Positions 1-19,882 of a DNA stretch of 19,882 nt are shown here, piece after piece (the stretch's first letter is position 1; every line of letters starts with the position of its first letter). The translations under genes were made by a program, and so were the position numbers. Below the pieces are notes generated by a model. It was given only the letters and a program-made list of their open reading frames with translations, searched no databases and had not been told where the DNA came from. The DNA lies in the IMG/VR virus record IMGVR_UViG_2548876858_000016, one strand, 5' to 3'. Origin of the DNA: a virus (lineage: Duplodnaviria; Heunggongvirae; Uroviricota; Caudoviricetes).

Positions 1-492
1 TGACAAACCGGTTTTTGCTTTCAGTTGGCGATATCCGGCATAGCCCTCACGAATGTTGCCCTTTTTGATTTGCTCAACTGTTTCGGCAACGTGGCTGACT
101 TTTTCTTCCACCTGAGTGATCCGTTTCTGCTGACGAACAGCTTCAAGAGCCATCGCGGCAACCATTTCGATTTCGCTCATTGGCTTACGGATCTGTTCTT
201 CCAGTTCGCGCCAGCGATCTACCAGGCGGGCTGTGAATTCGGGACAAAGCTGTGCGACGACAATGATGCTGTCGCGTTTGCCTCGTTCACCTTCGAAAAG
301 ATAATGCTTACTTTTTTGAGTTAAACCTAACCCATTGATATTTTCAGAAATCCCCATTGGGGGAAGCTGAATAATCCTTCGTTCAGCAAGGCGCTCAATG
401 GATTGTTTCACTTTGTCATGGCGGCTACCCACCAGCTCTGCGATCTCAACGCTGGTCATGGATGCTTTGCCGTTAAAAATTGCGGTGTTCAT
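1..492 (-). CDS. Phage regulatory protein Rha-family (N-terminal part; frame runs off the left window edge)
   Basis: Minus-strand frame open from ATG (490-492) to position 1; absent from the ORF track because no stop lies inside the window. My translation starts MNTAIFNGKASMTSVEIAELVGSRHDKVKQSIERL..., which matches the conserved N-terminal pattern of Rha-family regulators. GGAGA 6 nt upstream; the ATG overlaps the TGA of the upstream cro-like gene (ATGA). Confidence 0.65.
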   Translation of the reverse strand, partial: MNTAIFNGKASMTSVEIAELVGSRHDKVKQSIERLAERRIIQLPPMGISENINGLGLTQKSKHYLFEGERGKRDSIIVVAQLCPEFTARLVDRWRELEEQIRKPMSEIEMVAAMALEAVRQQKRITQVEEKVSHVAETVEQIKKGNIREGYAGYRQLKAKTGLS

Positions 493-752
493 TGTTGGTC
501 TCCTGTGGGCTTGTCATCCTCTGTGTGCGCTAAGCCTGAATGTGGAAAAAGCTCTGGTAGGTCTGGACGAAATTCATACGCTTGGATCTTTCCGTCGACA
601 GCTGCAACCAATAACGGCACAAATTCTGGTGAAATCTTGTTCTTGCAGTTCAACCAATCGCAGACTGTTGACTGGGCCTTTCCGCATCGCTTGGCTAAGG
701 CTTGCTGACTTCCAAGAATCTCAATAGCTTTCTCTATGGCTTTATGTTTCAT
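489..752 (-). CDS. Cro/YdaS-like small HTH DNA-binding regulator
   Basis: Track ORF 489..803(-); the internal Met (MKHKAIEKAIEILGSQQALAKRCGKAQSTVCDWL...) at 750-752 has an AGGAGA SD 7 nt upstream, so the shorter start is preferred. HTH-like segment; divergent from the repressor gene; translationally coupled to rha. Confidence 0.6.
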   Translation of the reverse strand: MKHKAIEKAIEILGSQQALAKRCGKAQSTVCDWLNCKNKISPEFVPLLVAAVDGKIQAYEFRPDLPELFPHSGLAHTEDDKPTGDQQ

Positions 753-774
753 AATCGCATCTCCTATTGAACGC

Positions 775-803
775 ATAATAACAACAGGAAAAGCGATATT
801 CAA
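775..803 (-). promoter_or_regulatory. Candidate early promoter for the cro-like/rha operon (minus strand TTGAAT-17-TATTAT)
   Basis: Minus-strand hexamers read from reverse complement: -35 at 798-803, -10 at 775-780, 17-bp spacer. Two related motifs TTnAACGnnTAA (767-778 and 799-810) overlap the hexamers, as operator half-sites would. Confidence 0.4.
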
Positions 804-821
804 CGTTAAACCTAGAACATT

Positions 822-837
822 TATCGGAAAGCCGATA
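822..837. promoter_or_regulatory. Palindrome TATCGGaaagCCGATA in the cro/cI intergenic region; candidate operator
   Basis: Perfect 6-bp inverted arms with 4-bp spacer, ~35 bp upstream of the repressor start. ATCGG/CCGAT elements recur around the pL-like promoter (1616-1650). Confidence 0.35.
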
Positions 838-871
838 GACTAGCCAAGATAGAGAGGGGAGGAAAATCGCA

Positions 872-1564
872 ATGACATTTTCAGAACGACTTGATTTAGC
901 TATGCGCAACGCAAAATTTACGCAAGGTAGGCTGGCCAAAGAAGTGGGTATGGCTCAGTCCAGTGTCAATCAACTACTTAACAAAGCCAACGGTTCCAGA
1001 AAAACAGTCGAAATAGCAAAAGTTTTGGGCGTTAACCCGGAATGGCTCGCATCGGGTGTTGGCCCAATGGAAATCGTGACCTCTGCAGACTCACACCAAA
1101 TACGTAACATTTCTGAGGATTGGGTTACTGATTCGTATGTCGTGGATGTTTTAGACATCAGATATAGTTGCGGACCTGGTAGTTATAACTCTGATTTTCC
1201 TGACATTGTCAGATCTATAGCGATAGAACCAGGATACGCATCAAGAGTTTTTGGCGGCAGGCCAGCATCAGCAATCAAAGCAATAAACGCCCACGGCGAC
1301 AGTATGAAAGGCACAATAGACCCTGAAGACTTGGTATTTGTAGATGTATCAGTTCGCGCATTTAATGGTGATGGTATATACGCCTTTACATACTCTGGAA
1401 CATCGCACATCAAAAGACTTCAAAAAATCAAAGATACTCTAACGGTGATATCTGACAACCCAGCTTACAAGGATTGGGCTATCGAACCGGAAGACTTTGA
1501 ACAACTTCACATTGACGGAAAAGTAATTGTCAGTTGGCCTATGACACTACACCGTTTTGCATAA
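872..1564 (+). CDS. CI-like phage repressor (N-terminal HTH_XRE domain + C-terminal S24 LexA-like autopeptidase domain)
   Basis: 230-aa ORF. N-terminal HTH (QGRLAKEVGMAQSSVNQLL), C-terminal GDSM serine motif and downstream Lys (HIKRLQK) typical of S24 peptidases. GGAGG SD ~9 nt upstream; divergent from cro-like gene. Confidence 0.85.
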   Translation: MTFSERLDLAMRNAKFTQGRLAKEVGMAQSSVNQLLNKANGSRKTVEIAKVLGVNPEWLASGVGPMEIVTSADSHQIRNISEDWVTDSYVVDVLDIRYSCGPGSYNSDFPDIVRSIAIEPGYASRVFGGRPASAIKAINAHGDSMKGTIDPEDLVFVDVSVRAFNGDGIYAFTYSGTSHIKRLQKIKDTLTVISDNPAYKDWAIEPEDFEQLHIDGKVIVSWPMTLHRFA

Positions 1565-1582
1565 GCAAAAATCATTTAACCC

Positions 1583-1608
1583 GCCCACTCTTAAGTGGGC
1601 TTTTTTTT
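1583..1608 (+). terminator. Rho-independent terminator after the repressor gene
   Basis: GCCCACTC / GTGGGC stem with short loop followed by T8 run (1601-1608). Confidence 0.55.
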
Positions 1609-1629
1609 GGAAAGAAATCGATAAACCGA

Positions 1630-1658
1630 TTGACAGGAAAAATCGGCAAACCTATTAT
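1630..1658 (+). promoter_or_regulatory. Near-consensus sigma70 promoter (TTGACA-17-TATTAT), pL-like
   Basis: TTGACA at 1630-1635, 17-bp spacer, TATTAT at 1653-1658; flanked by CCGAT/ATCGG dyad elements; drives the downstream plus-strand operon. Confidence 0.55.
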
Positions 1659-1707
1659 CATGGCATAGGTATCGAACTCACCAAAACAATTATAGAGGAT
1701 GAGAAAA

Positions 1708-2205
1708 ATGTCATCGTATATGGGGTTACCAACAAATCAGCACGATGCTCTTGAGAATATTCAGCTCTTAGTCGGGGCTGGTGCACTACTGTATAGCAGC
1801 AATAACCCTGAGTTAATTGAACTTGCCAGCTCCATCCTGGCTGTAACTCAAAAATATAGCCTCACAGCGTCGCGTTTATGCAAACAAAATTTAGCTATTA
1901 ATTCCCAGAATCGGATTAGCACCCAACGCGAAGCCTGCGGCTTAACAACAGCCGAACTCGCCAGGCTGCTCGATCTCGATGAAGAAATTATCATCCAGTG
2001 GGAGAGCGGAGAGTATGAACCAACTATCAGTATGCTTATCCCACTGGCAAATATTCTTGGCTGCGATCCGATGTGCCTGTTAACTGGTGAGGTTACTCCT
2101 CCGGAGCAACCAAAAAGTGAGGAGCAGCAACACCATGACGCATCTCAACAAGTTTGCCCCTTATCTCGCGAAGCTCTTCTGCGGAAGAACCAATACCAAT
2201 GGTGA
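1708..2205 (+). CDS. HTH_XRE-family DNA-binding protein
   Basis: Track ORF 1699..2205. AGAGG (1694-1698) abuts the first ATG, so the second ATG at 1708 (8-nt spacing) is preferred. Cro/C1-type HTH (LTTAELARLLDLDEEIIIQWESGEYEPTISMLIPLANILG) lies in the C-terminal half. Confidence 0.55.
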   Translation: MSSYMGLPTNQHDALENIQLLVGAGALLYSSNNPELIELASSILAVTQKYSLTASRLCKQNLAINSQNRISTQREACGLTTAELARLLDLDEEIIIQWESGEYEPTISMLIPLANILGCDPMCLLTGEVTPPEQPKSEEQQHHDASQQVCPLSREALLRKNQYQW

Positions 2206-5779: not shown

Positions 5780-6016
5780 ATGGGCAATGTGATTCAACTG
5801 GCTCCCAATGAATGGGTTTGTGAAAGCGTTCTAATCGCAATTACCGGGCTCAAACCAGGCACAATTCTTCGGGCCCGGAAAGAATGCTGGATGGTTGGAA
5901 GAGAGTATATTCACGTATCACCAGACGGTAATCCAAAGCCTTCCAGTGAATGTATGTATAACAGAAAAGCAATAGATGCCTGGGTTGCTTCAATGAAAAA
6001 CAAACAACCTGGGTGA
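5780..6016 (+). CDS. Excisionase-like (Xis-type) small DNA-binding protein
   Basis: 78-aa ORF immediately upstream of the integrase; EW...R...W...GREY pattern reminiscent of lambda-type Xis; GAGGT SD. Confidence 0.55.
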   Translation: MGNVIQLAPNEWVCESVLIAITGLKPGTILRARKECWMVGREYIHVSPDGNPKPSSECMYNRKAIDAWVASMKNKQPG

Positions 6017-6071: not shown

Positions 6072-7385
6072 ATGGATAAAGTCAAATATCCAACAGGCGT
6101 CGAAAACCACGGTGGCACATTACGCATCTGGTTTAATTTTAAAGGTAAACGTGTCAGGGAAAATCTTGGTGTCCCTGACACTGCCAAGAACAGGAAGATC
6201 GCCGGAGAGCTGCGGACATCTGTATGTTTTGCTATTCGTACAGGAAACTTTGATTACGCTGCGCAGTTCCCTGACTCTCCTAACCTCAAGGCTTTTGGGG
6301 TAAGTAAAAAAGAAATTACGGTGAAGGAACTTGAAGAAAAGTGGCTGGATCTGAAACGAATGGAAATCTCTGCAAATGCATTCAATCGCTATGAATCCGT
6401 TGCAAGAACGATGGTTCCGAAAATTGGAGGCAGCAGACTGGTGTCATCGGTAACTAAAGAGGAATTGCTGTATATCAGGAAAGATTTGCTGACCGGATAT
6501 CAGAATTCAACGAAAAACAAAGCAGCAGCAAAAGGACGGAGCGTCGTTACTGTAAATTATTACATGACGACAATCGCTGGAATGTTTCAGTTTGCTGCAG
6601 ATCACGGTTACCTAGAAGCAAATCCTTTCCAGGGAATTAAGCCTCTTAAAAGAGCCAGGGCAGAGCCAGATCCGCTAACTCGTGACGAATTTATTCGCCT
6701 GATAGATGCTTGCCGACATCAGCAGACGAAAAACCTGTGGTCATTGGCTGTGTACACAGGAATGCGTCACGGTGAACTGGTCTCCCTGGCCTGGGAAGAT
6801 ATCGATCTGAAAGCAGGAACTATTACTATCAGGCGCAATTATACGAAACTCGGTGAGTTCGCTCTACCTAAAACTGAAGCAAGTACAAACAGGGTTGTGC
6901 ATCTTATCCAGCCCGCTATCAGTGTCCTGAAAAATCAGGCTGAAATGACAAGACTGGGTAAGCAGCACCACATCAAGGTTCAACTACGTGAATATGGGCG
7001 TTCAGTGAATCATGAATGTACTTTCGTATTTAACCCCCAGGTGGTTAGAAAAAGCAAACAGGTCGGTTTTATCTACAAGGTAGATTCTATTGGCGACTCA
7101 TGGGAAACAGCCATTAAGCGTGCGGGCATCAGGCACCGGAAAGCATACCAGTCACGACACACTTATGCGTGCTGGTCATTATCTGCCGGAGCAAACCCAA
7201 GCTTCATTGCCAGCCAGATGGGCCATGCAAGTGCCCAGATGGTGTTCAATGTATACGGAGCATGGATGACTGACAGTAATGCAGAACAGATCGCAATGCT
7301 GAATCAGAAGCTGGCAGATTATGTCCCAATGATGTCCCATGGTCACCAAAGTGACACAAGAGACTTATTAAAATCAGTGGGTTAG
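6072..7385 (+). CDS. int: Tyrosine site-specific integrase (phage integrase family)
   Basis: 437-aa ORF; GGAGGT SD; C-terminal catalytic-domain pattern (TGMRHGEL, HxxR-type segment SRHTYA, catalytic Tyr in NVYGAWM); stop lies directly at the junction with the host-gene fragment. Confidence 0.9.
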   Translation: MDKVKYPTGVENHGGTLRIWFNFKGKRVRENLGVPDTAKNRKIAGELRTSVCFAIRTGNFDYAAQFPDSPNLKAFGVSKKEITVKELEEKWLDLKRMEISANAFNRYESVARTMVPKIGGSRLVSSVTKEELLYIRKDLLTGYQNSTKNKAAAKGRSVVTVNYYMTTIAGMFQFAADHGYLEANPFQGIKPLKRARAEPDPLTRDEFIRLIDACRHQQTKNLWSLAVYTGMRHGELVSLAWEDIDLKAGTITIRRNYTKLGEFALPKTEASTNRVVHLIQPAISVLKNQAEMTRLGKQHHIKVQLREYGRSVNHECTFVFNPQVVRKSKQVGFIYKVDSIGDSWETAIKRAGIRHRKAYQSRHTYACWSLSAGANPSFIASQMGHASAQMVFNVYGAWMTDSNAEQIAMLNQKLADYVPMMSHGHQSDTRDLLKSVG

Positions 7386-7399
7386 CCTTCAATACCCGT

Positions 7400-7813
7400 C
7401 ATGTTAACTGTGTGGAGGGTAACACCACGCTTTATGCCCTGCCGAAACCCGAGGTTGTCCTGCGCTGGCGTGAGCAGACCACAGATGACTTCCGCTTCTG
7501 TTTTAAGTTTCCGGCGACTATTTCGCATCAGGCAGCATTACGGCATTGCGATGATTTAGTGACTGAATTTTTGACCCGCATGTCACCGTTGGCTCCGCGC
7601 ATTGGACAATACTGGCTGCAACTGCCTGCCACATTCGGCCCACGGGAGCTGCCTGCGCTTTGGCATTTTCTCGACTCTCTTCCCGGCGAATTTAATTATG
7701 GTGTGGAAGTCCGCCATCCACAGTTTTTCGCCAAAGGGGAAGAGGAACAAACGATTAATCGCGGTTTACATCAGCGCGGCGTTAATCGGGTGATTTTCAT
7801 CAGACACGTTTAA
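7400..7813 (+). pseudogene. yecE: Internal fragment of a DUF72-family host gene (yecE-like), disrupted on both sides
   Basis: Frame encodes ~135 aa (VEGNTTLYALPKPEVVLRWREQTTDDFRFCFKFP...GVEVRHPQFF...) with no plausible start. Assignment to DUF72/yecE is from memory of the family. The fragment sits between the integrase and the serine recombinase. Confidence 0.5.
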
Positions 7814-7914
7814 ATACACCACCTAAAGCGATACAATCTAGGGGTTGGTAGATGATTCGGATGAAGCATCCTCATAACAAGCCCAACTGCTATTAGTTTT
7901 TATGGTGGTAAAGA

Positions 7915-9438
7915 ATGAAACGTGTAATCAGCTACATCAGATTCAGTTCTGAGCGACAAGCCAAAGGCGACTCACTACGCAGACAGTCTAAGATGGTTAA
8001 TGACTGGCTTAAGGCTCATCCTGAGTACTACCTTGACCAAGATTTATCCTTCCGTGATTTGGGGGTGAGTGGGTTCACTGGTAAGCACTTGAAAGGTGGC
8101 TTAGGTGACTTTTTAACCGCTATCGAGAAAGGGCTTGTTAAAGCTGGTGATACGCTCTTGATAGAATCTCTTGACCGTCTGTCACGTCAAGATGTAGACC
8201 AAGCAAGTGAGCTACTCAGAAACATTCTTCGCTCTGGTGTAGATGTGGTCACCTTGTCCGATGGTGAACATTACACACGAGAATCTCTTAAAGACCCGTT
8301 AGCTCTGATTAAAAGCATTCTGATAATGCAGCGGTCGCATGAGGAGAGTTTGAGGAAGTCTGAGCGTATACAAGCTGCATGGAACCGTAAAAAAGAACTC
8401 ATCTCTGAAGGTATCAAGATTTCTAAACGTTGTCCTGCATGGCTTAAGCTTAATGATGACCGTAAAAGCTTCTCTGTAATCCCTGAGAAAGTGGAGACTG
8501 TGAAGAGGTGCTTTCAGCTACGGTTAGAGGGTAAGTCTATCTGGGAGATTGTCAGGACTCTTAATGATGAAGGTCACCAGACGCTTAACCAATATAAAGC
8601 GGGTTCATTTGGTCAAACCTCAGTACAAGACCTTCTGAAAAATCGCTCTGTAATTGGTTACTTCACACCTAAAGGCTGTGAAGAGATAGCTGATTATTAT
8701 CCTGCAATTATAGATGAAACAACATTCTACAAAGTCCAGCAACTATCATATGCTCGTTACGGTAGAAAACCTGCTTCAGATAAGCCAATGGCTGTGAATC
8801 TTTTCAAAGGTGTTATCCGTTGCTCTGAATGTGGTCATGCTCTGATTATCACAGGCTTTAGCGATACAAGAAACGGGATTTATCGCTGTCCCCTTCGTAA
8901 TGAAAACCGTTGTAGTGCTAAAGGGCTGTCACGTAAGCAAACCGATGGTACATTGCTTACCCTGCTATCTCGTCTTGACCGATTTGATAGCGATACGACG
9001 AATACCATCGATACACTGAAGTTACACCGTGAACACATCTCAAGCAATATTGAGAAGCTGGTACAGCTATCACTTGAAATTGAAGATTTGTCAGCTATTA
9101 CCAGCAAGCTAAAACAACTAAAGAATGAGCTATCACAGGTTGATGCGGATATCGAGAAGGAGACACAACGCCTTAAATCTATTGATGTGGGGTGTTTGTC
9201 TGATTGTGACTTGACTACAAAGGCGGGAAGGATTGAAGCACAACTGATAATCAAAAGTGCTGTTAAAGAGGTCGTTTTAAATACTGCTAAACGTCGATGT
9301 AAAGTGACTTTTCACAACGGTAAGGTAATTGACCTACCAATAACAGAAAACCCCTCAGACAACGTTACAGAGGCTATACAGTCGCTTTCTGAAGTCACTG
9401 AGAGGGGTTTAATAGATGTTGATGAGGTTATCATATAG
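7915..9438 (+). CDS. Large serine recombinase (resolvase catalytic domain + recombinase domain + zinc-ribbon)
   Basis: 507-aa ORF; N-terminal YIRFSSERQ with catalytic Ser; Cys cluster CSECGH...YRCPLRNENRC; C-terminal coiled coil. Confidence 0.85.
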   Translation: MKRVISYIRFSSERQAKGDSLRRQSKMVNDWLKAHPEYYLDQDLSFRDLGVSGFTGKHLKGGLGDFLTAIEKGLVKAGDTLLIESLDRLSRQDVDQASELLRNILRSGVDVVTLSDGEHYTRESLKDPLALIKSILIMQRSHEESLRKSERIQAAWNRKKELISEGIKISKRCPAWLKLNDDRKSFSVIPEKVETVKRCFQLRLEGKSIWEIVRTLNDEGHQTLNQYKAGSFGQTSVQDLLKNRSVIGYFTPKGCEEIADYYPAIIDETTFYKVQQLSYARYGRKPASDKPMAVNLFKGVIRCSECGHALIITGFSDTRNGIYRCPLRNENRCSAKGLSRKQTDGTLLTLLSRLDRFDSDTTNTIDTLKLHREHISSNIEKLVQLSLEIEDLSAITSKLKQLKNELSQVDADIEKETQRLKSIDVGCLSDCDLTTKAGRIEAQLIIKSAVKEVVLNTAKRRCKVTFHNGKVIDLPITENPSDNVTEAIQSLSEVTERGLIDVDEVII

Positions 9439-9452
9439 TTGAGATTCTATCG

Positions 9453-10226
9453 TCAGTAGCGCTTATTCGGATTCACCGAAAACTTCTTCAAAGTACTACC
9501 TGTACCAGCATTATTAAGCACCTTTGAAGCTTGCTCATTAGCGGCATCTGAGAAGGTGCTTTTTCCGTTCTTAACTCTGACATTCCTACCACAATTGATA
9601 CGGGCTTGAAGTTGCTCATTAGAAAGTTCACTCGTAGAGCGATTATATAGCTCCTGACACATCAACATACCGTTACCTAAGCTTGTCGTAGTGTTCCCTG
9701 TATTCTTTTTGCTGGTAGCACCACCATCATTTGTAGTAGCTGTCTTTCCAGTAGCAGCCGAAATATCAGTTTGACCCACAATAGCTTTAAAGTTAATTTC
9801 CTGAAAAGTTAGCTGGATTCTTAGACCATTTGAAATACCAACATCTTTAGAGGCTTTAAAGCTTGTAATAATGGAGTCATCAATTTTAATACCATCTTTA
9901 CAGATGACCGAAATAATCTGCTTCTGGTCACGCCAGTTTTCAAGAGTGTCGATGAAGTTCTCCACCAGCTTATTATCTCTTGAGATAAGGATACTACCGG
10001 ATTCACCAACCACAACCACACCACTGATTGAAATAGTTCTTGGTGAACGCATTACATTATCTGTTACAGTCTGCCCTGATTGCATATTTTGAGTGGTCAC
10101 CATCATAGGGCTGTCATATTCCATCTGTTCAGTTGCTGATAAGGTTAAGAAATTATCTGGCTGTCCTTGTAGATGGAAGTAAACACCATCTTTACCAGTG
10201 TAACGAAGCTGACTAGTGTAAATCAT
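9453..10226 (-). CDS. Hypothetical protein (257 aa); possible tail component by position downstream of the tape-measure-like gene
   Basis: Track ORF; GGAGA SD 5 nt upstream of ATG; convergent with the recombinase gene. No domain recognised. Confidence 0.55.
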
Positions 10227-10389: not shown

Positions 10390-12480
10390 TCATTCTTCCT
10401 CTGGATAGCTTGAACTTAAGAGCATATCCTGCGTGAACTGGTCATTAGCTGATTGATTGAAAGTAAAGAAAGCTGGTTCATCCGGTCTAACAATTGCTTC
10501 ACCAGTGATATTAACTGACAAGGGCTTCTTAGCTTCTACTGTTAAAGCATCAACCTTGCGTGATAGCTCACTAATAGTCATTGCAAGTTGAGCATTACTA
10601 TTAACCATGTCACCCGTAATAGCTGGTGGAGTTGATTGTGTGTTATTTACGAAGTTATTCATCGGTTCTTGGGAGTTAGCAATTTTATCAGCTGCACTAC
10701 TAAACCAACCTTTAACATCGTCCATAGTGAACACTGGTTTAAGTCCAGACTCTTTAGCTAGCTCTGGTAATTTAGCTTGTGCTTCCATTCGTTCAGGTGT
10801 AGAAGCTAATCTTTCATAACCTGCATAGATAGCACTACCAGCTAATAGCATATTCATAGGGTTTAGTCTTGATGGTTTCCCATTCTTTCTATTCACGTTA
10901 TCCGCTGTGGTATCAGCGACCTGACCTAATCTTGTGATAGCAGTCATAAGCCCGTAAATACTTCTGGTTACACCAACAACTTTATTCACAGCAATAACAC
11001 CAGCCAAGACTTTTAAACTATTAATCAAGCCAGAACCTAAAGCATCAACTACTTTCTTTTGCTCATCGGTTAAACCACGATAAGCTAATGTCACCTCATC
11101 GAAGAATGCTCTTACCCTGTAGCTGATATCAGTCAATGAATCGACACCATGCGACATATCGCTCATCAAGCTACCAAGAGATTCACCAAGACTTTTACCA
11201 CTTCCACCAAGAGCGTTTAAAAGCGTTGTTAGGCTTCTTGTGAAATCTTGAAGACCATTTTCAGAACCTCTGAAGATACTATCAAGCGTGGTATTCCAAG
11301 AGTTTTTCAAGTTCCCTAGTTGTGCCTGTGTACTTTCTGAAATGGCTTTCCAGCCACCTTTAGCGGTGATTTGTCTATTCAGTTCCTGAGTGACCTTCTG
11401 AAGAGTATCGGCAGATTTTAAAGCCCCCTTCTTCATGGCATCAAATAATTCCTGTTCACTCTTTCCGGTTGCTTTAGCGAATACCTGAACCATACCAGGA
11501 ACAGCTTCAGCCAGTTGCCCCTTAAGCTCTTCAGCCATAATCTGACCCTTACCAGCCATCTGTGATAATGCTGTCAGTGCTCGCTTAATCTCTTCTTCAC
11601 TTCTCCCCATCAGACGAGCATAGCCAATCATATTTTTAAAAAGTTCTTCAGAACCTTGAATACCCATAGACTCTTTAGCTGAAGCACCAAAACCAGCAAA
11701 CTGTGATTGCAGTTCAGCGATATCTAAACCCGTTGTTTGAGCTAATGACTTTGTGAACTCTTTTACCTGACCTGCATCTTTATCAAATACGAAATCAATT
11801 GAACGCTCAGCACTTGCACGCTGTAAACCAATTTCCATAATCTTCTGATAACTGGCTAATACAGCCTGCATTGAGATAAATGCACCTGCTGTTTTAACTG
11901 CTGCTGAAGACAGGTTATCAAGACTATTAGCTGCTCTGTCAGCATTAATGCTGGTGGATGTATGACCTCTGGCTTTAGCAATTGCTTCTCTGACTGAAGC
12001 GTTTAACTGAGCTAACTTCTCATTGAATTTTGAAGAATCCATTGACCCGGCTTTAGCAGATAGCCCGTAAAACTGAGATTTGATGTATTTCTGCAAAATA
12101 GGGTCAAAGCCTTTTAGCTTAGACATATTAGCTGAGTAAGCCGCTGTGATTGCTCTGTTGCCGCTAATTAGTGGCTGTCTTGGCTGTCTAAGTGGCTTTA
12201 AAGTATCCTCAATTTCCGTTTTAATCTTAAACGCTCTAGTGTTTTTAAGACGCTGCTCAATCTTGTCAAAGGTCTTATTAAACTTCCTTTCAAGTTGCCC
12301 TAAAGAACTTGTCAGATTGCTGTCAAGTTGCTTGGTATCGACCTTAAACGCTCTATTCAAATTGCGTTCAATTCTTTGTGCTGACTGCAAAGCTGCCTTT
12401 TCAACTCTTTGCAGTCCCTTAATAACGTTTTCATTGAAGCCTAGCTCAACGATAAAACTATCAACTGTGAATTTGCTCAT
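10390..12480 (-). CDS. Phage tail tape-measure-like protein
   Basis: 696-aa ORF; central region (GSEELFKNMIGYARLMGRSEEEIKRALTALSQMAGKGQIMAEELKGQLAEAVPGMVQVFAKATGKSEQELFDAMKKG) matches the tape-measure core pattern; coiled-coil N-terminus; GAGGTG SD. Confidence 0.7.
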   Translation of the reverse strand: MSKFTVDSFIVELGFNENVIKGLQRVEKAALQSAQRIERNLNRAFKVDTKQLDSNLTSSLGQLERKFNKTFDKIEQRLKNTRAFKIKTEIEDTLKPLRQPRQPLISGNRAITAAYSANMSKLKGFDPILQKYIKSQFYGLSAKAGSMDSSKFNEKLAQLNASVREAIAKARGHTSTSINADRAANSLDNLSSAAVKTAGAFISMQAVLASYQKIMEIGLQRASAERSIDFVFDKDAGQVKEFTKSLAQTTGLDIAELQSQFAGFGASAKESMGIQGSEELFKNMIGYARLMGRSEEEIKRALTALSQMAGKGQIMAEELKGQLAEAVPGMVQVFAKATGKSEQELFDAMKKGALKSADTLQKVTQELNRQITAKGGWKAISESTQAQLGNLKNSWNTTLDSIFRGSENGLQDFTRSLTTLLNALGGSGKSLGESLGSLMSDMSHGVDSLTDISYRVRAFFDEVTLAYRGLTDEQKKVVDALGSGLINSLKVLAGVIAVNKVVGVTRSIYGLMTAITRLGQVADTTADNVNRKNGKPSRLNPMNMLLAGSAIYAGYERLASTPERMEAQAKLPELAKESGLKPVFTMDDVKGWFSSAADKIANSQEPMNNFVNNTQSTPPAITGDMVNSNAQLAMTISELSRKVDALTVEAKKPLSVNITGEAIVRPDEPAFFTFNQSANDQFTQDMLLSSSYPEEE

Positions 12481-12688: not shown

Positions 12689-12892
12689 TTACCTAACCAG
12701 ATAATAATTACCATCTTCACCGACAATCTGACAATCACTTGGTAATTTATCAAGACACCATTTAGCGATTCTTCTGATTCTATTCTTTTGCTTAGAGGTG
12801 GATGATTTGATTCGTTTTGGTTTGTTGGGTTGTTCTTTCAATCGTTCACTAATTGCTTTAATAAGCTCATAGCGTTCTGTTAAATCAATCAT
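12689..12892 (-). CDS. Hypothetical small basic protein (67 aa)
   Basis: Track ORF; strong AGGAGGTG SD; Lys/Arg-rich centre (KPKRIKSSTSKQKNRIRRIAK). Confidence 0.5.
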   Translation of the reverse strand: MIDLTERYELIKAISERLKEQPNKPKRIKSSTSKQKNRIRRIAKWCLDKLPSDCQIVGEDGNYYLVR

Positions 12893-12916
12893 TCACCACC
12901 TCCTTTTAATTCATAG

Positions 12917-13657
12917 TTAAAGTGCCTTTGCATATTTCTGAGAAATCTTCACTAACTGCTCAATATCAGCCTGCATAGCAATTTTCTTCTGTGATTCATA
13001 TTCACTAACAAGCTCTTTCATAGTATCAAGCTCTTTTTTAAGCTTTTGCTTTAACTTATCCAGCTTATCGGAGTAATGCTTAGTCAGATTAGCTTCAGCT
13101 AACTGAAGAATCTCTTCATCTGTTTTGTTAGTCATCAGGATATATGAGCCTGTACCACGTGAAGCTTGTCTGACATCCATTAATCGAAAACCGTCAGGAA
13201 TACTTTGAAGCACTTTTGGAACATTCTCTCTTGCTGTACCGAAACCATTGTTGTAATTTCCTTCGTAATAGATAAACGGGTTTGTCTTAAGCTCATATTC
13301 AATATCATATTCTGAAGGTTTCTGAGTTTCTTCGAAGTTTTTGACAACATCATAAGCATTATCAAGCTTGATGCGCTGCTCTTTTAGTAGTGGATAGTAC
13401 TTCCTCTCAAGTGCAATCAGAGCTTCTGTCTTGCAAACATCAGTCATTTCCAGAGGCTCAGGATTGATATATTCAAGATTATTGGCTGGAACAATCTTTC
13501 GCAGCCTTTCTTTTTTGGCCTCTTCATCTGCAAGCTTGGCAATAATTTTGTGATAAGGTTTCATATGTGCATACTCATCTCCTTCATCAGTAAAATGCAA
13601 ATCATATGCACAAGGTTTTCTATCAACAATCGCTTCATGTTCATCACGGATAGACAT
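12917..13657 (-). CDS. Hypothetical protein (246 aa), charged with coiled-coil C-terminus
   Basis: Track ORF; GAGGAAAA SD ~9 nt upstream. Confidence 0.55.
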   Translation of the reverse strand: MSIRDEHEAIVDRKPCAYDLHFTDEGDEYAHMKPYHKIIAKLADEEAKKERLRKIVPANNLEYINPEPLEMTDVCKTEALIALERKYYPLLKEQRIKLDNAYDVVKNFEETQKPSEYDIEYELKTNPFIYYEGNYNNGFGTARENVPKVLQSIPDGFRLMDVRQASRGTGSYILMTNKTDEEILQLAEANLTKHYSDKLDKLKQKLKKELDTMKELVSEYESQKKIAMQADIEQLVKISQKYAKAL

Positions 13658-13692
13658 TATTATTTTTCCTCTTCTAAGATAATTTATGTTTC

Positions 13693-13774
13693 AGTTTTTA
13701 AAAAGCACACCTGACAGCCTACGAACTTAGAAGAGACTTAAAAGGCGGTTTGCCAAGTGCGCTTTTTAAAAGCT
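13693..13774. repeat. 18-bp inverted repeat (AGTTTTTAAAAAGCACAC ... GTGCGCTTTTTAAAAGCT, 16/18) with ~47-bp spacer
   Basis: Seen directly in the sequence, inside a 470-bp ORF-free gap between minus-strand genes. Confidence 0.6.
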
Positions 13775-14130
13775 GAAAAAGCCCTAGATAACTAAAACGC
13801 TATAAAGGGCTAAGGTGAAGAAATTAAAGAACATCCAAAGGATTCAATAACGAATGAACAAAGACTTTTTGAGATAGCCTATCTAGTGTGGGCTAAATAG
13901 GCCATGACGAAAAGCATTGCACCTTTCCAACTCAGAATAACTATCATTGATGTAGAATGATTAATAGTTTAATTCAGGAAGAGTTGCTCTCCCCTATTAC
14001 CATCATCTCATGCTTAAGGTTATTTGTCAACAGCTTTTAACAGATTGATAACATCAATTCTTATTTACTGTGTTACCCACCCAGCAACCAACAAATAAGC
14101 CAAGCAACGTCCAAGCAATTATTAAGCCCA

Positions 14131-14454
14131 TTAGTGAACCCTCACGGAATCCGTAACCAAAATATTATCGCTGTACAGGATTGTCACAGCACCTTTCAAA
14201 AATCGCTCTGGGGAAATACTGTATTTGTTCGTTTGCTCAATAACCAATCTTTTCATATTACTGTCTGTAATTGGTAACATCATTCGAGGCTCGTTAAACT
14301 CCACCGAGTGAATAAAGTCAGAGATGCTTTCCGCATTATCAGCCATTAACTCTAACAACTTATCAAAGTCAATGCTAACACCTACATCAGTGAAAGCCTG
14401 AATCATCATGGCGGTGTCGGTATCAATAAAAATCTGTAGTGGGAAATTATTCAT
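14131..14454 (-). CDS. Hypothetical protein (107 aa)
   Basis: Internal Met of track ORF 14131..14565 (MNNFPLQIFIDTDTAMM...), with AGGA SD 9 nt upstream. Confidence 0.5.
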   Translation of the reverse strand: MNNFPLQIFIDTDTAMMIQAFTDVGVSIDFDKLLELMADNAESISDFIHSVEFNEPRMMLPITDSNMKRLVIEQTNKYSISPERFLKGAVTILYSDNILVTDSVRVH

Positions 14455-14592
14455 TTTTAAAATCCTATAAAAACACATCTTAAATCTGCCAAAATAGCCA
14501 TTCTGAGGCCAGTAACCATGCGGGTTACAGAGGGAGTGAGACACCTTAGTAATAGGGTAGCTCATCTTTGAGTCTCACTCATTCTCACAGAC

Positions 14593-14979
14593 TTACACAG
14601 ACGCTTTAATCTTGTAGTATTGACTACGTGATAAGCCGTATTTCTCAGAAATATAACTTTGTGATTGTCCTTTGGTGATTGCATCAATGATTAAATCTTT
14701 ATCGTATCTGTTACCGTTGGCTTTGTGCTTGTCACTATTTTTAATAGAGTTGAAGTTCTCCATTAATTCAATGGCGTCTTTAAGGTCGCTTTCGTAAGCA
14801 TAATCAAAACCTCTGATAAACTCGAAATCACCATTATCTTTTTGTGCTTCAGCCCAGATATCAAATCTTGAGGCTAATTGCTGGTGGGTAAACTTGGGCT
14901 TATTGGTTTGTGTTACGTCTTTCCAGACCTTACCGTCAAATCTTACCAAATGGTCACGATGCTTATAAAAATCATACAT
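14593..14979 (-). CDS. Hypothetical protein with C-terminal HTH (128 aa)
   Basis: Track ORF; GGAGG SD; C-terminal ITKGQSQSYISEKYGLSRSQYYKIK resembles a resolvase/Hin-type or small-terminase-type HTH. Start overlaps the upstream stop (TAATG). Confidence 0.55.
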   Translation of the reverse strand: MYDFYKHRDHLVRFDGKVWKDVTQTNKPKFTHQQLASRFDIWAEAQKDNGDFEFIRGFDYAYESDLKDAIELMENFNSIKNSDKHKANGNRYDKDLIIDAITKGQSQSYISEKYGLSRSQYYKIKASV

Positions 14980-15257
14980 TAAACCTCCATTGCTAATTTG
15001 TGAATTTTGATACTTAGTAATCTTGCTAAATCCAGTCCAAAGGCATTTAGAGCCTTCAGACTATCAAGGTCATCTTGCTTAATCCTGATATGGTGTCTTG
15101 CTGCCTCTAAACGACTATTAAGCAAATCCTGCTCGTTAATATCACGGTTAATTGCAAGCTTCATCACTGCTGAGTGTGGCAGACCTGTAATGTTTTTGAT
15201 TCGGTTAAGTTCGTCAAAGGCTGTCTTTGTAACTCTGGTTAAAGTGTGCTTAGTCAT
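14979..15257 (-). CDS. Hypothetical protein (92 aa)
   Basis: Track ORF; tightly packed between neighbours in one minus-strand operon. Confidence 0.5.
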   Translation of the reverse strand: MTKHTLTRVTKTAFDELNRIKNITGLPHSAVMKLAINRDINEQDLLNSRLEAARHHIRIKQDDLDSLKALNAFGLDLARLLSIKIHKLAMEV

Positions 15258-15260
15258 TAT

Positions 15261-15824
15261 TTAAAATCCTTCTGCTTGTGCGTACACGTCAAATTCAAAG
15301 TCTGGCTCACTGCTTGTAAGACTGATATTACCAACGGTAATATGATGCTCGACAATACCAATTAACTTTGCGCACATCACAGCAAGTAATGCGCAATAGG
15401 CATCGCTTGGTAACTCATGGCTTAACCTGGTTGCCTGACGCTGGAGATGGTTTGTCACGGTAGCTGAGTTAATTTCATCAAGATTCTTTAGAAGATAAAA
15501 CAATTTCTTGTTGTATTTTGGGTGCCCCTCACTTCTGCAAAATCCGATAAGAATGTCGTCAAGCTTGCTCGGTAATTGCTCGTAGCTGTCAAAGTTAGCC
15601 AGATAATTCTTGATGCTGTTCTTTGTTGTTTTGCGTACTGACATATAACGACTCCTCGGTGTAATTGCCCGAATTACTTCGTCAATGCCTTTGCGTTCTG
15701 CTCTGGTGAACTTGGGTGCTTCGTGGCTGGTGGGGGAGTTTGTGTAGCTGTAGGAGTTGTAGGAGTTGTATCTGTTACGTTGTCTCGATGCCTGAAGCAT
15801 CGCTCTAAATTCTCTGTCGTTCAT
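15261..15824 (-). CDS. Hypothetical protein (187 aa) with in-frame 9-bp tandem repeat
   Basis: Track ORF; AAGGA SD 11 nt upstream; GTAGGAGTT x2.3 at 15750-15770 encodes NSYNSYSY. Confidence 0.55.
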   Translation of the reverse strand: MNDREFRAMLQASRQRNRYNSYNSYSYTNSPTSHEAPKFTRAERKGIDEVIRAITPRSRYMSVRKTTKNSIKNYLANFDSYEQLPSKLDDILIGFCRSEGHPKYNKKLFYLLKNLDEINSATVTNHLQRQATRLSHELPSDAYCALLAVMCAKLIGIVEHHITVGNISLTSSEPDFEFDVYAQAEGF

Positions 15825-15910
15825 TCATAAGCTAGTCCTTATAATTGTTAATTCTCTGTTAACTTATATAGACAATACTAGCATTTTCAAAGACTAATGT
15901 CAAGCATTTT

Positions 15911-15940
15911 TTAACATTTCATTAACATCTGTGGTATAAT
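15911..15940 (+). promoter_or_regulatory. Candidate sigma70 promoter with extended -10 (TTAACA-18-TGgTATAAT)
   Basis: TATAAT at 15935-15940 preceded by TG at 15932-15933; TTAACA at 15911-15916. Confidence 0.5.
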
Positions 15941-16299: not shown

Positions 16300-16340
16300 A
16301 CTCCCTTCAAAACCCCCTGTACGTGATGGTATAGGGGTAT

Positions 16341-16763: not shown

Positions 16764-17432
16764 TCAGCCCAACCTTTGAACAATCCTGTAAGTGGTGCTT
16801 AGAGGTATTCTTAGCGATTCTGCGATGCTCTTGATGGGTTGCCCTTGGTCATACATTTTAATCAACCTGTCAAGCGTCTGTGCATCGTGCATATGAGGTC
16901 TTCCACGTAAACCACCCCTGTTAACCACGGCAAGTAAAAGCATTGTGTCACCACAATAGATTGTCTGGGTAACTTCAACTTTCGGTTTGCGGGGTGTGTT
17001 CCTGTATATCAAAACGCAACTTGGAAACGGTGAGCGCACTACAACACCTCTCTTTCCTGCTGGTGGAAGGTATTTGACTGCTCGGTGTAACGTTCGAATC
17101 TCATGCAGGAAGGGGTTTGTATATACACACCGAAGCCAGTAAGTTGTCTTTGACCTGAGCGGAACCAGACATACACACACATCAGCTTCAGGGGCTTTTA
17201 AGAGGAACTTTTCAGCCATGCTAAACGGCGGGTTAACGAAGACCCGTTCACCAACCCATGATTGATTGTGAATATCATCGGTGAACCGTGGCAACAATGC
17301 GTCATACTCAGTTGCAGCACCATCTAGACTGAAGTTAAACTCACGATGCAGGTTATGAAATAAACGATACGGTGTACGCCAGTCATCAGAACCACCATGA
17401 TAACGACCAACATTGATTATTGGATGCGACAC
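16764..17432 (-). CDS. Phage Dam-family N6-adenine DNA methyltransferase fused to a C-terminal resolvase/Hin-type HTH
   Basis: 222-aa ORF with GTG start (AGAGGGG SD ~10 nt upstream). N-terminal ~150 aa shows DDWRTP...F.F.LDGAA...NPPFS...SPFPS, which I recognise as the phage Dam MTase pattern; C-terminal GRPHMHDAQTLDRLIKMYDQGQPIKSIAESLRIPLSTTYRIVQRLG resembles a serine-recombinase HTH. Confidence 0.7.
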   Translation of the reverse strand: MSHPIINVGRYHGGSDDWRTPYRLFHNLHREFNFSLDGAATEYDALLPRFTDDIHNQSWVGERVFVNPPFSMAEKFLLKAPEADVCVCLVPLRSKTTYWLRCVYTNPFLHEIRTLHRAVKYLPPAGKRGVVVRSPFPSCVLIYRNTPRKPKVEVTQTIYCGDTMLLLAVVNRGGLRGRPHMHDAQTLDRLIKMYDQGQPIKSIAESLRIPLSTTYRIVQRLG

Positions 17433-17470
17433 AAGCGAAGCGCCCCTCTTAGTATATTTCTTAATCGTCT

Positions 17471-17517
17471 CTTTAGCATTTAGTGCTTTTTGTTAAGTTT
17501 AGCACTTTTTGCTAAAG
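17471..17517. promoter_or_regulatory. Inverted pair of the 17-bp dyad motif, upstream of the Dam-HTH gene; candidate operator
   Basis: CTTTAGCATTTAGTGCT (17471-17487) and reverse complement of CTTTAGCAAAAAGTGCT (17501-17517), 13-bp spacer; 40-85 bp upstream of the GTG start; a minus-strand TATACT -10 candidate lies at 17451-17456. Confidence 0.45.
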
Positions 17518-17944
17518 ACAAAAGCATTGACAAAATGGTAGGATTGTTCACATAGCCCTTACTTAACAGACTCTTAAGAGCTTTGAAACAGCCTGTTTAA
17601 CAAGGTCACTACCTCTGGTCTTATCGTTCCCTTCTTTCTAGGTAGTCATCTGTTAAGAACTTTTCAGTTTTATTCTTAAGATAATTGTTAAGATGATACT
17701 CTCCCTTCGGGTTATATCGTATCTCTCCTCCCGTTAAATATCCCTTCACAGTCAGACTAAATAACACCTGTGTAGTTTCTTGGTAGAATCTTTCAAGGTA
17801 ACTTAACTCTGAGTTTATGAAGTTGACCTATGAGATAGACTCTACCGAATCTGTTAGTCAATTGTTGCTTAGGTGCTGCTAAGGCTTACTTAGTGGGAAG
17901 AGAGGGAATATGTGACCATAGGAACCCCTCCTGTTAAAAGCTTC

Positions 17945-17972
17945 TTGACGTTACTATCTCGATATGTATAAT
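17945..17972 (+). promoter_or_regulatory. Near-consensus sigma70 promoter (TTGACG-16-TATAAT)
   Basis: TTGACG at 17945-17950, 16-bp spacer, TATAAT at 17967-17972; no credible ORF downstream. Confidence 0.5.
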
Positions 17973-17979
17973 GGCTTAC

Positions 17980-18148
17980 TGTACTAGGTTTACTTCCAAA
18001 GCAACCAAGCACACTCTCTATGGCAGTGTCCAGCGAGGTAAGGTCGTGTAGGGTGCGGTTCGGTGGGGTAAGGTTTGGTGCGGTATGGGTGGATTGTCGT
18101 AGCCACGTTAAAAATCGACTTATAGGGACTCTTTCGGGAGTCCTTTTT
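17980..18148 (+). ncRNA. Candidate ~170-nt small RNA bounded by promoter and intrinsic terminator; G-rich internal tandem repeat
   Basis: Starts ~7 nt after the -10 and ends at the 18125-18148 terminator; contains GGTAAGGT...GGTGCGGT twice (18046-18095); the only overlapping ORF (18020-18298) reads through the terminator and looks non-coding. Confidence 0.4.
18125..18148 (+). terminator. Rho-independent terminator (GGACTC-tttcgg-GAGTCC + T5)
   Basis: 6-bp stem at 18126-18131 / 18138-18143, T-run 18144-18148; plus-strand specific. Confidence 0.6.
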
Positions 18149-18298
18149 AGTTTGTATAAAATCTGTACAGTAACTTTTCAGAGTCTGAAAATTTTTATAA
18201 ATATCGTAGTAACCCCTCTACATTCCCCTTCACCGATAATTTTCAAAAATATCTACACTCAATTGATGGCTGTTAAGTACCCCAGATTCACGATATAG

Positions 18299-18308
18299 CC
18301 CCCCCCCC
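18299..18308. repeat. Homopolymeric C10 tract
   Basis: Ten consecutive C in intergenic DNA, immediately upstream of a promoter-like TTGCAA-16-TATAAC (18310-18337). Confidence 0.9.
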
Positions 18309-19048
18309 TTTGCAAAAGCAGTTAAAATATCTATAACCAACCATTGACTTTCTTCATGATATCTGTTTAGCCCCACCTCAATAAGCCATCATCACACATC
18401 AAAGCATCTATCAAGAAGGTTTAACCTATCAATAGCTGTAACATTTTATAGTTCTGTGAAGTCCTATCCAGTTTTCTCTGTAACAGCTACAAACTTCTGT
18501 GACCTTATGTGTCAATGACTTATAAGACATGCTCTCAAGGTGCTGTATAGCCTCTTATCAGCCAATACACAAAACCCTTATAAATCAGTACTGATATGTA
18601 TACAGTATGTTTTTAACATAATAGCTGTTTTACGCACTAATAAGCACCTACGTAGATTCTGTATAGAGATTAAGATGTCTCTAAGTGATTTTTTAAGAGG
18701 AGATACGAAGGAACTATAACCATCACTTCATAACTTTCACGTAGGTAACTATTAAGTAGGTTGATAGTCACTTTGAGGGAATATTGATAGTGACCAACTG
18801 CATAGACACCGTTATATAGCCCTGTATATAGCACTATATGTAGTGTCTGGAGAGGGACGACTAACACGATATAGTTTACCCTGAAAAGAGGATTTACAGA
18901 TTCTCTATACATTTCAATAAGTTATGATAAAAAGGGGCTATGTCGATACTGTATAGAATCTGTGTAGGATTGCATAGATACTTGGAAAAATACCGTTAAA
19001 TTGCATAGGTACTAACCTGTTTATGTCCTGTTATTTACAGGCATAGCA

Positions 19049-19882
19049 TTATTGGTTAATTAATTCATCCGACTCTATATCATTACCTTTTTCTTTTTCC
19101 TTTTTAATTTTAGCCTCTACCATATCGAACATTTTCATTGTCTGTGATGAAGTTAGCTCTTTCTTTTGTCGTAGCGCGTTACGTATGGTAGAAGCTTCAA
19201 TATCAGAAACTGTTAAAAGTTCTTCTACCCTACTCTTCAATTGCTGTAATGAACGGCTATTATCAACTTTAAAGAAATCATCCATTACCTCAAGTGAGGC
19301 AACAATCAAATCCTGTAGTCTCTCTTTTTCTATCTCGATATTTTCAATGGTTTGTTTTTCTTTAGATACTAACTGCTTTAAATTATTAATTTCTTTCTGA
19401 ATCAGTTTCTTCTCTGTCTGTAGCTCTTCTGTGACCAGCTCTTCACGCTTACCACGCTCTACTTCCGCTTTAATATCAGCATCAATTTTAGCATTTTCTT
19501 TCTCTTCTTCTCTGGCAGCCCGAACCTTTAACCCCGTTAACCTGATTGAATCCAAGTATTCTTTTTCCTTTGTAAGATAAACATTTTCATTGTGTTTATC
19601 TGTAGCCCATTTTTGAGCAAGAGAAAGTAACCATTGAGCATAAGGAGTAATAACAGCTAGCACACCTCCAAAAAAGACAGGAGCAAGCAGATAATGAGCG
19701 TAAAAATATTCCTGAGATAGTATATAATCTATTCGAAACTTAACAGGCGCATCACTCATAAAGAGCATTGCTAAGTTAGGCCAGTTGAACCATACCCATG
19801 CAAGAATGATATATCCCCATAATGGGCTTTTAATCCTATCGTTTATTGCTTGCATAGTAGAATCTAACCACCCATCACTCAT
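19049..19882 (-). CDS. Membrane-anchored coiled-coil protein (two N-terminal TM segments + long K/E-rich coiled coil); start at or beyond window edge
   Basis: Track ORF; hydrophobic segments LWGYIILAWVWFNWPNLAMLF and YLLAPVFFGGVLAVITPYAQWLL, then heptad-like K/E-rich sequence. The Met at 19880-19882 is the last codon in the window, so the true start may lie outside. Confidence 0.55.
   Translation of the reverse strand: MSDGWLDSTMQAINDRIKSPLWGYIILAWVWFNWPNLAMLFMSDAPVKFRIDYILSQEYFYAHYLLAPVFFGGVLAVITPYAQWLLSLAQKWATDKHNENVYLTKEKEYLDSIRLTGLKVRAAREEEKENAKIDADIKAEVERGKREELVTEELQTEKKLIQKEINNLKQLVSKEKQTIENIEIEKERLQDLIVASLEVMDDFFKVDNSRSLQQLKSRVEELLTVSDIEASTIRNALRQKKELTSSQTMKMFDMVEAKIKKEKEKGNDIESDELINQ

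Follow-up and report, generated by a model that had tools for sequence, protein, structure and literature searches.

The yecE gene of Escherichia coli is an established integration site of Shiga toxin (Stx) phages and lambdoid prophages (PMC5592225, PMC8112680, PMC3603311). The attachment (att) sequence of Stx phages in yecE given in the O26 study, CAYGCAGTTAA (PMC5592225), is the reverse complement of the core of yecE and of phage phiP27, whose database record carries annotated 11-bp attL and attR features of sequence TTAACTGCGTG. Several prophages may occupy one E. coli locus, each bringing its own att pair as the hotspot builds up (PMC8112680, PMC3603311, PMC5592225). Here we analyze a 19,882-nt stretch of tailed-phage DNA (IMG/VR record IMGVR_UViG_2548876858_000016; hereafter the window) in which two unrelated site-specific systems have almost certainly each inserted their own element into yecE, at sites 382 bp apart: a phiP27-like prophage with a tyrosine integrase, and an element of ~12 kb with a large serine recombinase. 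The prophage side of this arrangement is a known case, as is the presence of several elements at one locus, and the tandem arrangement in itself is nothing unusual for a gene already known as a phage hotspot. What sets this locus apart from described tandem and nested prophages is that two recombinase classes have used two targets in one gene, with a piece of that gene left between them. In the literature library that was searched, no paper ties yecE to a serine-recombinase element.

The second element has its own described relatives. Its recombinase resembles the integrases of A118/LI, phiC31, Bxb1 and TP901-1 and the YbcK-like enzymes in its three-domain build: a resolvase domain comes first, then a recombinase domain, then a zinc ribbon that bears a coiled coil. 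It also shares with the serine integrases of temperate phages a gene that adjoins att, an attP of ~48 bp, a non-palindromic crossover dinucleotide, an intragenic site and a target duplication no longer than 2 bp. It differs from them in its sequence (36% identity to the nearest phage-encoded enzymes) and in its cargo, which is a 12-kb island rather than a phage genome. This island is a candidate new element family.

The orphan yecE fragment and its two junctions

The window opens inside the prophage, of which it holds 7.4 kb only, and closes ~100 bp short of the right junction of the serine element. The original prediction, made from the letters of the sequence, had placed the end of a tyrosine integrase at 7385, a frame resembling the middle of a DUF72 gene after it and the start of a large serine recombinase at 7915. 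All of these coordinates stand (open reading frame (ORF) list, sequence and Pfam), and the papers cited above agree with its statement that yecE is a known phage integration locus. The features that define the two junctions are the following.

5780-6016, plus strand: excisionase gene (Pfam DUF1233, putative excisionase, 9.5e-33), directly upstream of the integrase gene
6072-7385, plus strand: tyrosine integrase of phiP27 type, 437 aa, assigned by Pfam; last gene of the left prophage
7386-7403, plus strand: phage-derived arm between the integrase stop codon and the att core, a near-match to phiP27 bases 12-29 on the complementary strand
7404-7414, plus strand: attR core of the tyrosine-integrase prophage, TTAACTGTGTG, corresponding to yecE nt 86-96
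7404-7797, plus strand: orphan internal yecE fragment, nt 86-479 of 819, with BLAST homology reaching back to 7392
7796-7797, plus strand: TT crossover dinucleotide of the serine element, yecE nt 478-479
7798-7820, plus strand: P' half-site, CATCAGACACGTTTAAATACACC, an imperfect inverted repeat of the P arm GGTGTATTTAGACCTTGCTAATC
7809-7837, plus strand: candidate promoter of sigma-70-like type, weak, upstream of the gene for the recombinase (TTTAAA-17-TACAAT, 9/12; a consensus match only)
7915-9438, plus strand: large serine recombinase, 507 aa, assigned by Pfam; integrase of the ~12-kb element

With the 819-nt yecE of K-12 as the intact reference, BLASTN aligns window positions 7392-7797 with yecE nt 74-479, on the same strand and collinearly, at 96.6% identity; the frame at 7400-7813 matches Pfam DUF72 (6.6e-34) over profile positions 17-138 of 217. 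Because the match is limited to nt 74-479 of 819, the fragment lacks both a start and the native C-terminus, just as had been proposed. One junction lies at the core of nt 86-96 and the other at the TT of nt 478-479. Two recombination systems have thus divided yecE into nt 1-96, 86-479 and 478-819, and, since their target sites differ, nt 86-479 is stranded, with the prophage attR on one side and attL of the second element on the other. The gene is inactivated by the double insertion. Holding two distinct attachment sites that are used by two recombinase classes, yecE is a locus at which the serine-recombinase element can mislead the occupancy assays by polymerase chain reaction (PCR) that serve to type Stx phages.

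The left junction is of a familiar kind. The integrase ORF, of the lambda-Int family and ending in TAG at 7383-7385, has both the N-terminal arm-binding domain and the tyrosine-recombinase catalytic domain (Arm-DNA-bind_2, PF12167, 4.5e-24; Phage_integrase, PF00589, 2.5e-18), and is 97.5% identical to the phiP27 integrase over its full length. The integrase, the excisionase-integrase gene order (as in phiP27), the 11-bp core in yecE and a neighboring SPFH/lipoprotein-type gene are all common to the window and to the phiP27-like Stx and lambdoid prophages of yecE. An assignment of the serine recombinase to phiP27 is rejected, the phiP27 enzyme being the tyrosine integrase. A core of the published type, TTAACTGYGTG (11 bp), marks the junction, at which K-12 reads ...gcccgccacTTTAACTGCGTGgagggc and the window ...acccgtcatgTTAACTGTGTGgagggt. 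The 18 bp that separate the integrase stop codon from this core (7386-7403) resemble yecE only patchily. In EC12, the genome with the best match to the junction region (98.8% over 93% of the query), the core is found at both attL and attR, and attB of K-12 also carries it.

The right junction is defined by the second recombinase, for which three Pfam domains score above cut-off (Resolvase, PF00239, 4.2e-20; Recombinase, PF07508, 9.2e-16; Zn_ribbon_recom, PF13408, 5e-7). The motif YIRFSSERQ occupies residues 7-15, and residues 239-454 align with the structure of the A118 serine integrase over its C-terminal domains. The ORF and these domains leave the predicted start of a large serine recombinase at 7915 in place. 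The attL of its element agrees with attB only as far as the TT at 7796-7797, and the attR of the element in genomes EC12, ZH177 and ECE218 agrees with attB only from this TT onward; the crossover therefore lies at TT 7796-7797. Prophage-only genomes and genomes with intact yecE likewise cease to match the window at 7797. Across the junction, K-12 reads gggtgattTTagacagcc and the window gggtgattTTcatcagacacgtttaaatacacc. The opposite end of the element in four complete genomes reads ggtgtatttagaccttgctaatcTTagacagcc or a close variant of it, and attL and attR in these four have only the TT in common with attB.

The P arm GGTGTATTTAGACCTTGCTAATC is present at attR in the relatives. The two arms, of 23 nt each, match as inverted repeats at 16/23 positions, with the outer 10 identical. 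The attP accordingly spans ~48 bp, its 2-bp crossover being framed by the two imperfectly inverted arms, and attL and attR are hybrids with no longer duplication. Inverted arms around the crossover are the usual layout of attP for serine integrases of the phiC31, Bxb1 and A118 types. Extrapolation from the relatives suggests that attR of the window strain reads GGTGTATTTAGACCTTGCTAATC-TT-AGACAGCC and lies ~100 bp beyond the end of the window. The recombinase gene begins 117 bp inside attL. Its closest phage-encoded relatives are YbcK-like recombinases, and no sequenced phage carries a closer one than these, at 36% identity. A scan of species-representative genomes found matches in Shigella flexneri (where the locus is rearranged) and an Escherichia sp. 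only; matches in IMG/VR lie on contigs of 22-53 kb and on one of 7.8 kb. The 48-bp attP and the attB in yecE make up a new serine-integrase/att pair native to E. coli.

Each element alone and the two together

Junction-specific searches were run over 5,426 complete E. coli genomes. The integrase junction occurs in 303 of these, the serine-recombinase junction in 280 and both in 16, so that yecE is disrupted by one element or the other in 567/5,426 (~10%). In genomes with a single element, the match to the window breaks off precisely at the mapped junctions. In three genomes (ZH177, ECE218 and CFSAN061772) the 12-kb element is the only one of the two, and yecE nt 1-479 stands unbroken to its left. 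The order in the doubly occupied EC12 is yecD, a 96-nt 5' piece of yecE ending in the core, a lambdoid prophage of ~49 kb, the excisionase and integrase genes, the yecE middle, the serine recombinase with its ~12-kb element, the 3' piece of yecE from the TT onward, and yecN. The far ends, at which att repeats had been expected, thus carry in EC12 the 11-bp core (at both ends of the prophage) and an attR that contains the TT (at the island end). The junctions, the EC12 layout, the single-element genomes and the 303/280/16 counts all bear out the proposal of independent insertions at two positions of yecE.

That either site may be occupied by itself speaks directly against one composite element with one att pair, in which the yecE-like stretch would be cargo or a captured fragment. 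Such an element might have been suspected from the fact that the two recombinase genes lie just 530 bp apart and point in the same direction, and prophages are known to carry yecE-like attB copies that other phages use for integration (PMC8112680). Those captured copies, however, are 87% identical over 100 bp, unlike the window fragment, which shows 96.6% identity to yecE of the chromosome and is exactly the part that the 5' and 3' pieces of EC12 lack between them. Hundreds of genomes have just one of the elements, at the junction proper to it, and the serine element by itself regenerates its own attP in a metagenome contig (described below). We consider a composite element highly improbable.

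The 16 doubly occupied genomes come from human, cattle, pig, rabbit farm, cheese and wastewater sources, and their flanks are 81-93% identical to the window; the variety of the flanks suggests that the combination may have arisen repeatedly. These genomes also bear on the notion that the orphan fragment was produced by faulty assembly, or by prophages rearranging with one another at a later stage (inversion or duplication). Prophage-rich regions are liable to both recombination and misassembly, and the immunity-proximal first 1.9 kb of the window (1-1915) has no match, at the stringency used, in the EC12 prophage, which is otherwise 95% identical; this suggests lambdoid mosaicism. The layout of integrase, yecE middle and recombinase nevertheless recurs in 16 independently assembled complete genomes with the flank identities just given. 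The three yecE pieces are collinear, in order and orientation, with the intact gene, and the breakpoints fall on known or typical att cores. An artifact or rearrangement is accordingly scarcely credible as the source of the fragment.

Independent insertion predicts 303 x 280 / 5,426 = 15.6 doubly occupied genomes, and 16 are observed; since the genomes are not phylogenetically independent, this agreement is indicative only. That restriction is one of four points that weigh against two independent insertions. The second is that the far att sites, the prophage attL and the attR of the serine element, both lie beyond the window, so that the full structure is reconstructed from relatives. The third is that the attR core of the window matches the phiP27 core at 10/11 bases, the one mismatch being the difference of this copy from phiP27. 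The fourth is that no known family of recombination directionality factors is matched among the ORFs of the element. Recombination directionality factors are too diverse for recognition by sequence.

From what is known of the two recombinase families, integrase and excisionase would excise the prophage through the 11-bp overlap, and the serine recombinase would integrate its element by a concerted double-strand cut at the TT followed by subunit rotation; its excision would require the recombinase together with a directionality factor. Each element should thus be able to excise separately. Both recombinases are probably active in this particular genome.

The 12-kb island and its sequence ties to Felix O1-type phages

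The serine element takes up the window from 7798 onward (12,085 bp), and by analogy with EC12 and ECE218 it ends ~100 bp past the last position. With a G+C content of 35-43% it is poorer in these bases than the yecE piece, which has about 50%. Related DNA is found in 548 genomes, always chromosomal and about 11-12 kb in length, larger where an insertion sequence (IS) has entered. The genes and other features beyond the recombinase are the following.

9453-10226, minus strand: homolog of a tail tube initiator (annotated as Dit-like or "baseplate protein"), 257 aa, 72% identical to Felix O1 ORF68
10390-12480, minus strand: tape measure homolog, 696 aa (Pfam TMP_3, phrog_4036)
12689-15824, minus strand: six orphan genes (67, 246, 144, 128, 92 and 187 aa), hypothetical proteins in relatives
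16764-17432, minus strand: Dam-type N6-adenine methyltransferase fused to a resolvase-type helix-turn-helix (Pfam Dam 1.1e-12, HTH_7 1.3e-6)
17945-18153, plus strand: small-RNA-like unit with a near-consensus sigma-70 promoter, a predicted G/T-rich transcript of ~170 nt and an intrinsic terminator
19049-19882, minus strand: final gene of the element within the window, 277 aa, with an N-terminal hydrophobic segment followed by a charged coiled-coil-like region

Besides the recombinase, only three genes have recognizable relatives: the tube initiator, the tape measure and the Dam methylase, which PADLOC classes as an orphan methyltransferase. The two tail genes point to one group of virulent phages. 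In the Felixounavirus Bas63, the gene that follows the tape measure encodes the tube initiator gp18 (PMC12609058). The central ~300 nt of the tube-initiator gene of the island are about 95% identical in DNA sequence to Felix O1 in an alignment read by eye; the Felix-like stretch differs among variants of the element, which makes the gene a recombination mosaic. For the tape measure, Felixounaviruses provide the best full-length matches among all phage records, at 29% identity and collinear with Felix O1; the N-terminal 45 residues are nearly identical to the Felixounavirus protein and the C-terminal LLSSSYPEEE is identical.

The six orphan genes have no significant Pfam, PHROG, NCBIfam or PADLOC family match; PADLOC and NCBIfam identify no defense system or named family among the orphan genes of the element. 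More broadly, the eight remaining proteins of the element have no significant family match and no close phage homolog: eight orphan proteins compared with 50,697 phage records returned only distant Dam methylase matches and one weak match to the 277-aa protein. The 277-aa gene occupies the same position in EC12, ZH177 and ECE218, where it is followed by attR and the 3' piece of yecE. The cargo of island variants differs (CFSAN061772, EC12 and L026 were compared): some lack the 277-aa gene at the right end, and some have an HNH endonuclease near the position of the 92-aa gene of the window (14979-15257).

A second tie to the same phages is non-coding. The promoter of the small-RNA-like unit (TTGACG-16-TATAAT) lies at 17945-17972 and its terminator at 18124-18145, followed by a T run; the predicted transcript covers 17979-18153, and the fold z-score of the unit is -2.6. 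Positions 18019-18119 have a counterpart in 119 phage records whose names mark them as Felixounavirus-like and whose hosts are Escherichia, Salmonella, Shigella and Citrobacter: an intergenic block without annotation, downstream of the DNA ligase gene. In 12 of these records the identity is as high as 90-95%. In phage ASO1B this block lies between the terminator of the DNA ligase gene and the next promoter, and in Felix O1 a promoter-like sequence stands directly upstream of it. A small RNA may be common to the island and to Felixounavirus-like phages. The CFSAN061772 variant has a different sequence at the corresponding position. Rfam at gathering thresholds and a tRNA scan, both applied to the whole window, gave no matches.

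Whether such an island is alive bears directly on what it might do. It could be regarded as a decaying, immobile remnant of an old prophage in yecE, which would make the double insertion historical. Consistent with decay, the element has only two recognizable structural genes, no replication or packaging gene was recognized in it by Pfam, PHROGs, NCBIfam, PADLOC or the phage-record search, and several copies are broken by IS elements (interruptions by IS2, IS100 or ISKpn26 were noted). Against decay stand the size, kept at 11.5-12 kb in 280 genomes, and the intact recombinase, tape-measure and tube-initiator ORFs, the two tail genes being intact in all variants examined. The ratio of nonsynonymous to synonymous divergence (dN/dS) is 0.11-0.16 among element variants for the tube initiator and 0.25-0.38 for the tape measure, while copies at the same chromosomal site differ from one another by dS of 0.3-1.0. 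Such dS values are far above core-genome divergence in E. coli, which makes the element family old, diverse and horizontally exchanged. The low dN/dS and intact tail genes indicate purifying selection in an old, diversified family rather than decay.

The third argument against an immobile remnant comes from the attP predicted by joining attL and attR, TATTTAGACCTTGMTRATYTTYATYAGACACGTTTAAATA. It does not occur in the viral contig collection and occurs once in the metagenome collection, at 2939-2978 of an 11,473-bp contig (L027; ERZ1090866 NODE-760). The right end of the element there runs through P-TT-P' straight into the recombinase gene, which is followed by ORFs of the sizes of the tube-initiator and tape-measure genes; no yecE sequence adjoins attP in the stretches that were read. 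The contig is close in length to the CFSAN061772-type element (about 11.45 kb), and it begins with a module not common to the compared variant. It has no direct repeat of at least 30 nt, and a closed circle is thus not demonstrated. As a circularly permuted copy of the island, the contig fits an excised or pre-integration form, and we judge an immobile remnant unlikely. Two regions of the contig correspond to non-coding DNA in the window: at 2000-2575 it encodes a 191-aa protein, a small serine recombinase akin to resolvases and invertases, and at 1-400 it has iteron-like direct repeats, TGTCATTTTGTCACTGGTAGTGG.

With lower confidence, and from comparative evidence, the second element would be a functional mobile island, active and interacting with virulent Felix O1-type phages. 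Of its two tail proteins, one would nucleate the tail tube and the other set its length; the pair would be useless to the island without the rest of a Felix-type tail. The island would also recombine with Felix O1-type phages and copy one of their non-coding blocks. The features expected of a functional satellite that are present are a 12-kb island, the absence of most virion genes, Felixounavirus-like tail genes and a shared non-coding block. It is possible, though we propose it only tentatively, that the element belongs to an E. coli satellite of virulent Felix O1-type myoviruses, or to a dedicated island directed against them, of a sort not described before; it would be the enterobacterial counterpart to the PLE-ICP1 pair of Vibrio. 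In such a scheme the island is predicted to excise on infection, its own tail homologs would hijack or poison tail assembly by the helper, and its small RNA would copy the phage intergenic block. No Felixounavirus-associated island or satellite is described in the literature library searched.

The comparison with the PLE of Vibrio cholerae, the satellite of ICP1, is instructive on both sides. The two have in common a size in the 12-18 kb range, a large serine recombinase, a majority of orphan genes, and sequence ties to a virulent myovirus instead of a temperate helper. They differ in that no homology to PLE genes is seen in the island, in that no replication initiator or capsid-remodeling gene is recognized in it, and in that it carries a tape measure and a tube initiator. 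To our knowledge, PLE carries no such tail genes. None of the satellite marker genes sought among the ORFs of the element with Pfam, PHROGs, NCBIfam and PADLOC (alpA, primase-replicase, small terminase, sid/psu/delta, capsid genes) is present, and the element consequently does not class with the P4-like, PICI, cfPICI or PLE satellites; it resembles PLE in outline only. Should the island indeed parasitize or block Felix O1-type phages, it would allow satellites of virulent phages to be studied in E. coli as a tractable model, and would bear on phage therapy and biocontrol, in which Felixounaviruses are widely used.

The hairpin module and other observations

The original prediction had also pointed to a small palindrome near the start of the recombinase gene as a possible part of its att site. 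The palindrome, GGATGaagCATCC (GGATG-aag-CATCC), is indeed present at 7859-7871; its membership in the minimal att site is rejected, since 62 bp separate it from the crossover, which puts it beyond the half-site of 23 nt, and since it belongs to an indel that is missing from close relatives. A bare palindrome of such size is weak evidence in any case: perfect palindromes with a 5-bp stem and 3-nt loop number 33 in the window, against 22 +/- 4.6 in shuffled sequences. The indel is the following.

7839-7889, plus strand: ~50-bp indel module containing the palindrome, in the leader of the recombinase gene, present in the window and in ECE218

The module is absent from EC12, ZH177 and CFSAN061772, even though the ZH177 element is otherwise 96.4% identical to that of the window. 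It lies beside attL in only 5/5,426 genomes; inverted, and ~34 bp inside attR, the same module is found in about 190 genomes with related elements. Copies outside the window include those at 2501-2550 of L024 and 17897-17941 of L026. The few copies examined stand at one end of the element or the other, never at both. The metagenome contig that bears attP has a shorter GGATG...CATCC hairpin at the same place near the attR arm. The palindrome is best described, from these comparisons, as part of a variable hairpin module that tends to adjoin either att arm, and the module may have an accessory role in flanking att.

The small-RNA-like unit lies in a longer region, 17433-19048 (1.6 kb), which has no credible ORF, in which long blocks are nonetheless conserved across diverged variants, and in which the lengths of indels among variants do not divide by three. 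Binding sites, an origin or additional RNA genes may lie in it. The region is rich in CTGTTAA-like and TGTATAG/TGCATAG-like motifs. Scans for direct and inverted repeats inside the element returned only short pairs at chance level; a 28-nt inverted repeat (86% complementary, 34-nt spacer) was noted at 13689-13778, between the 246-aa and 144-aa genes. At the other end of the window, in the prophage, one more feature may be listed.

872-1564: CI-type repressor (helix-turn-helix and S24 peptidase)

Divergent promoter-like sites lie at 15875-15940 and 16314-16337, between the 187-aa gene and the non-coding region. One is directed toward the long operon of the minus strand. The second has the form TTAACA-18-TATAAT and an extended -10 element, and a terminator-like hairpin stands ~370 nt downstream in the direction that it faces.

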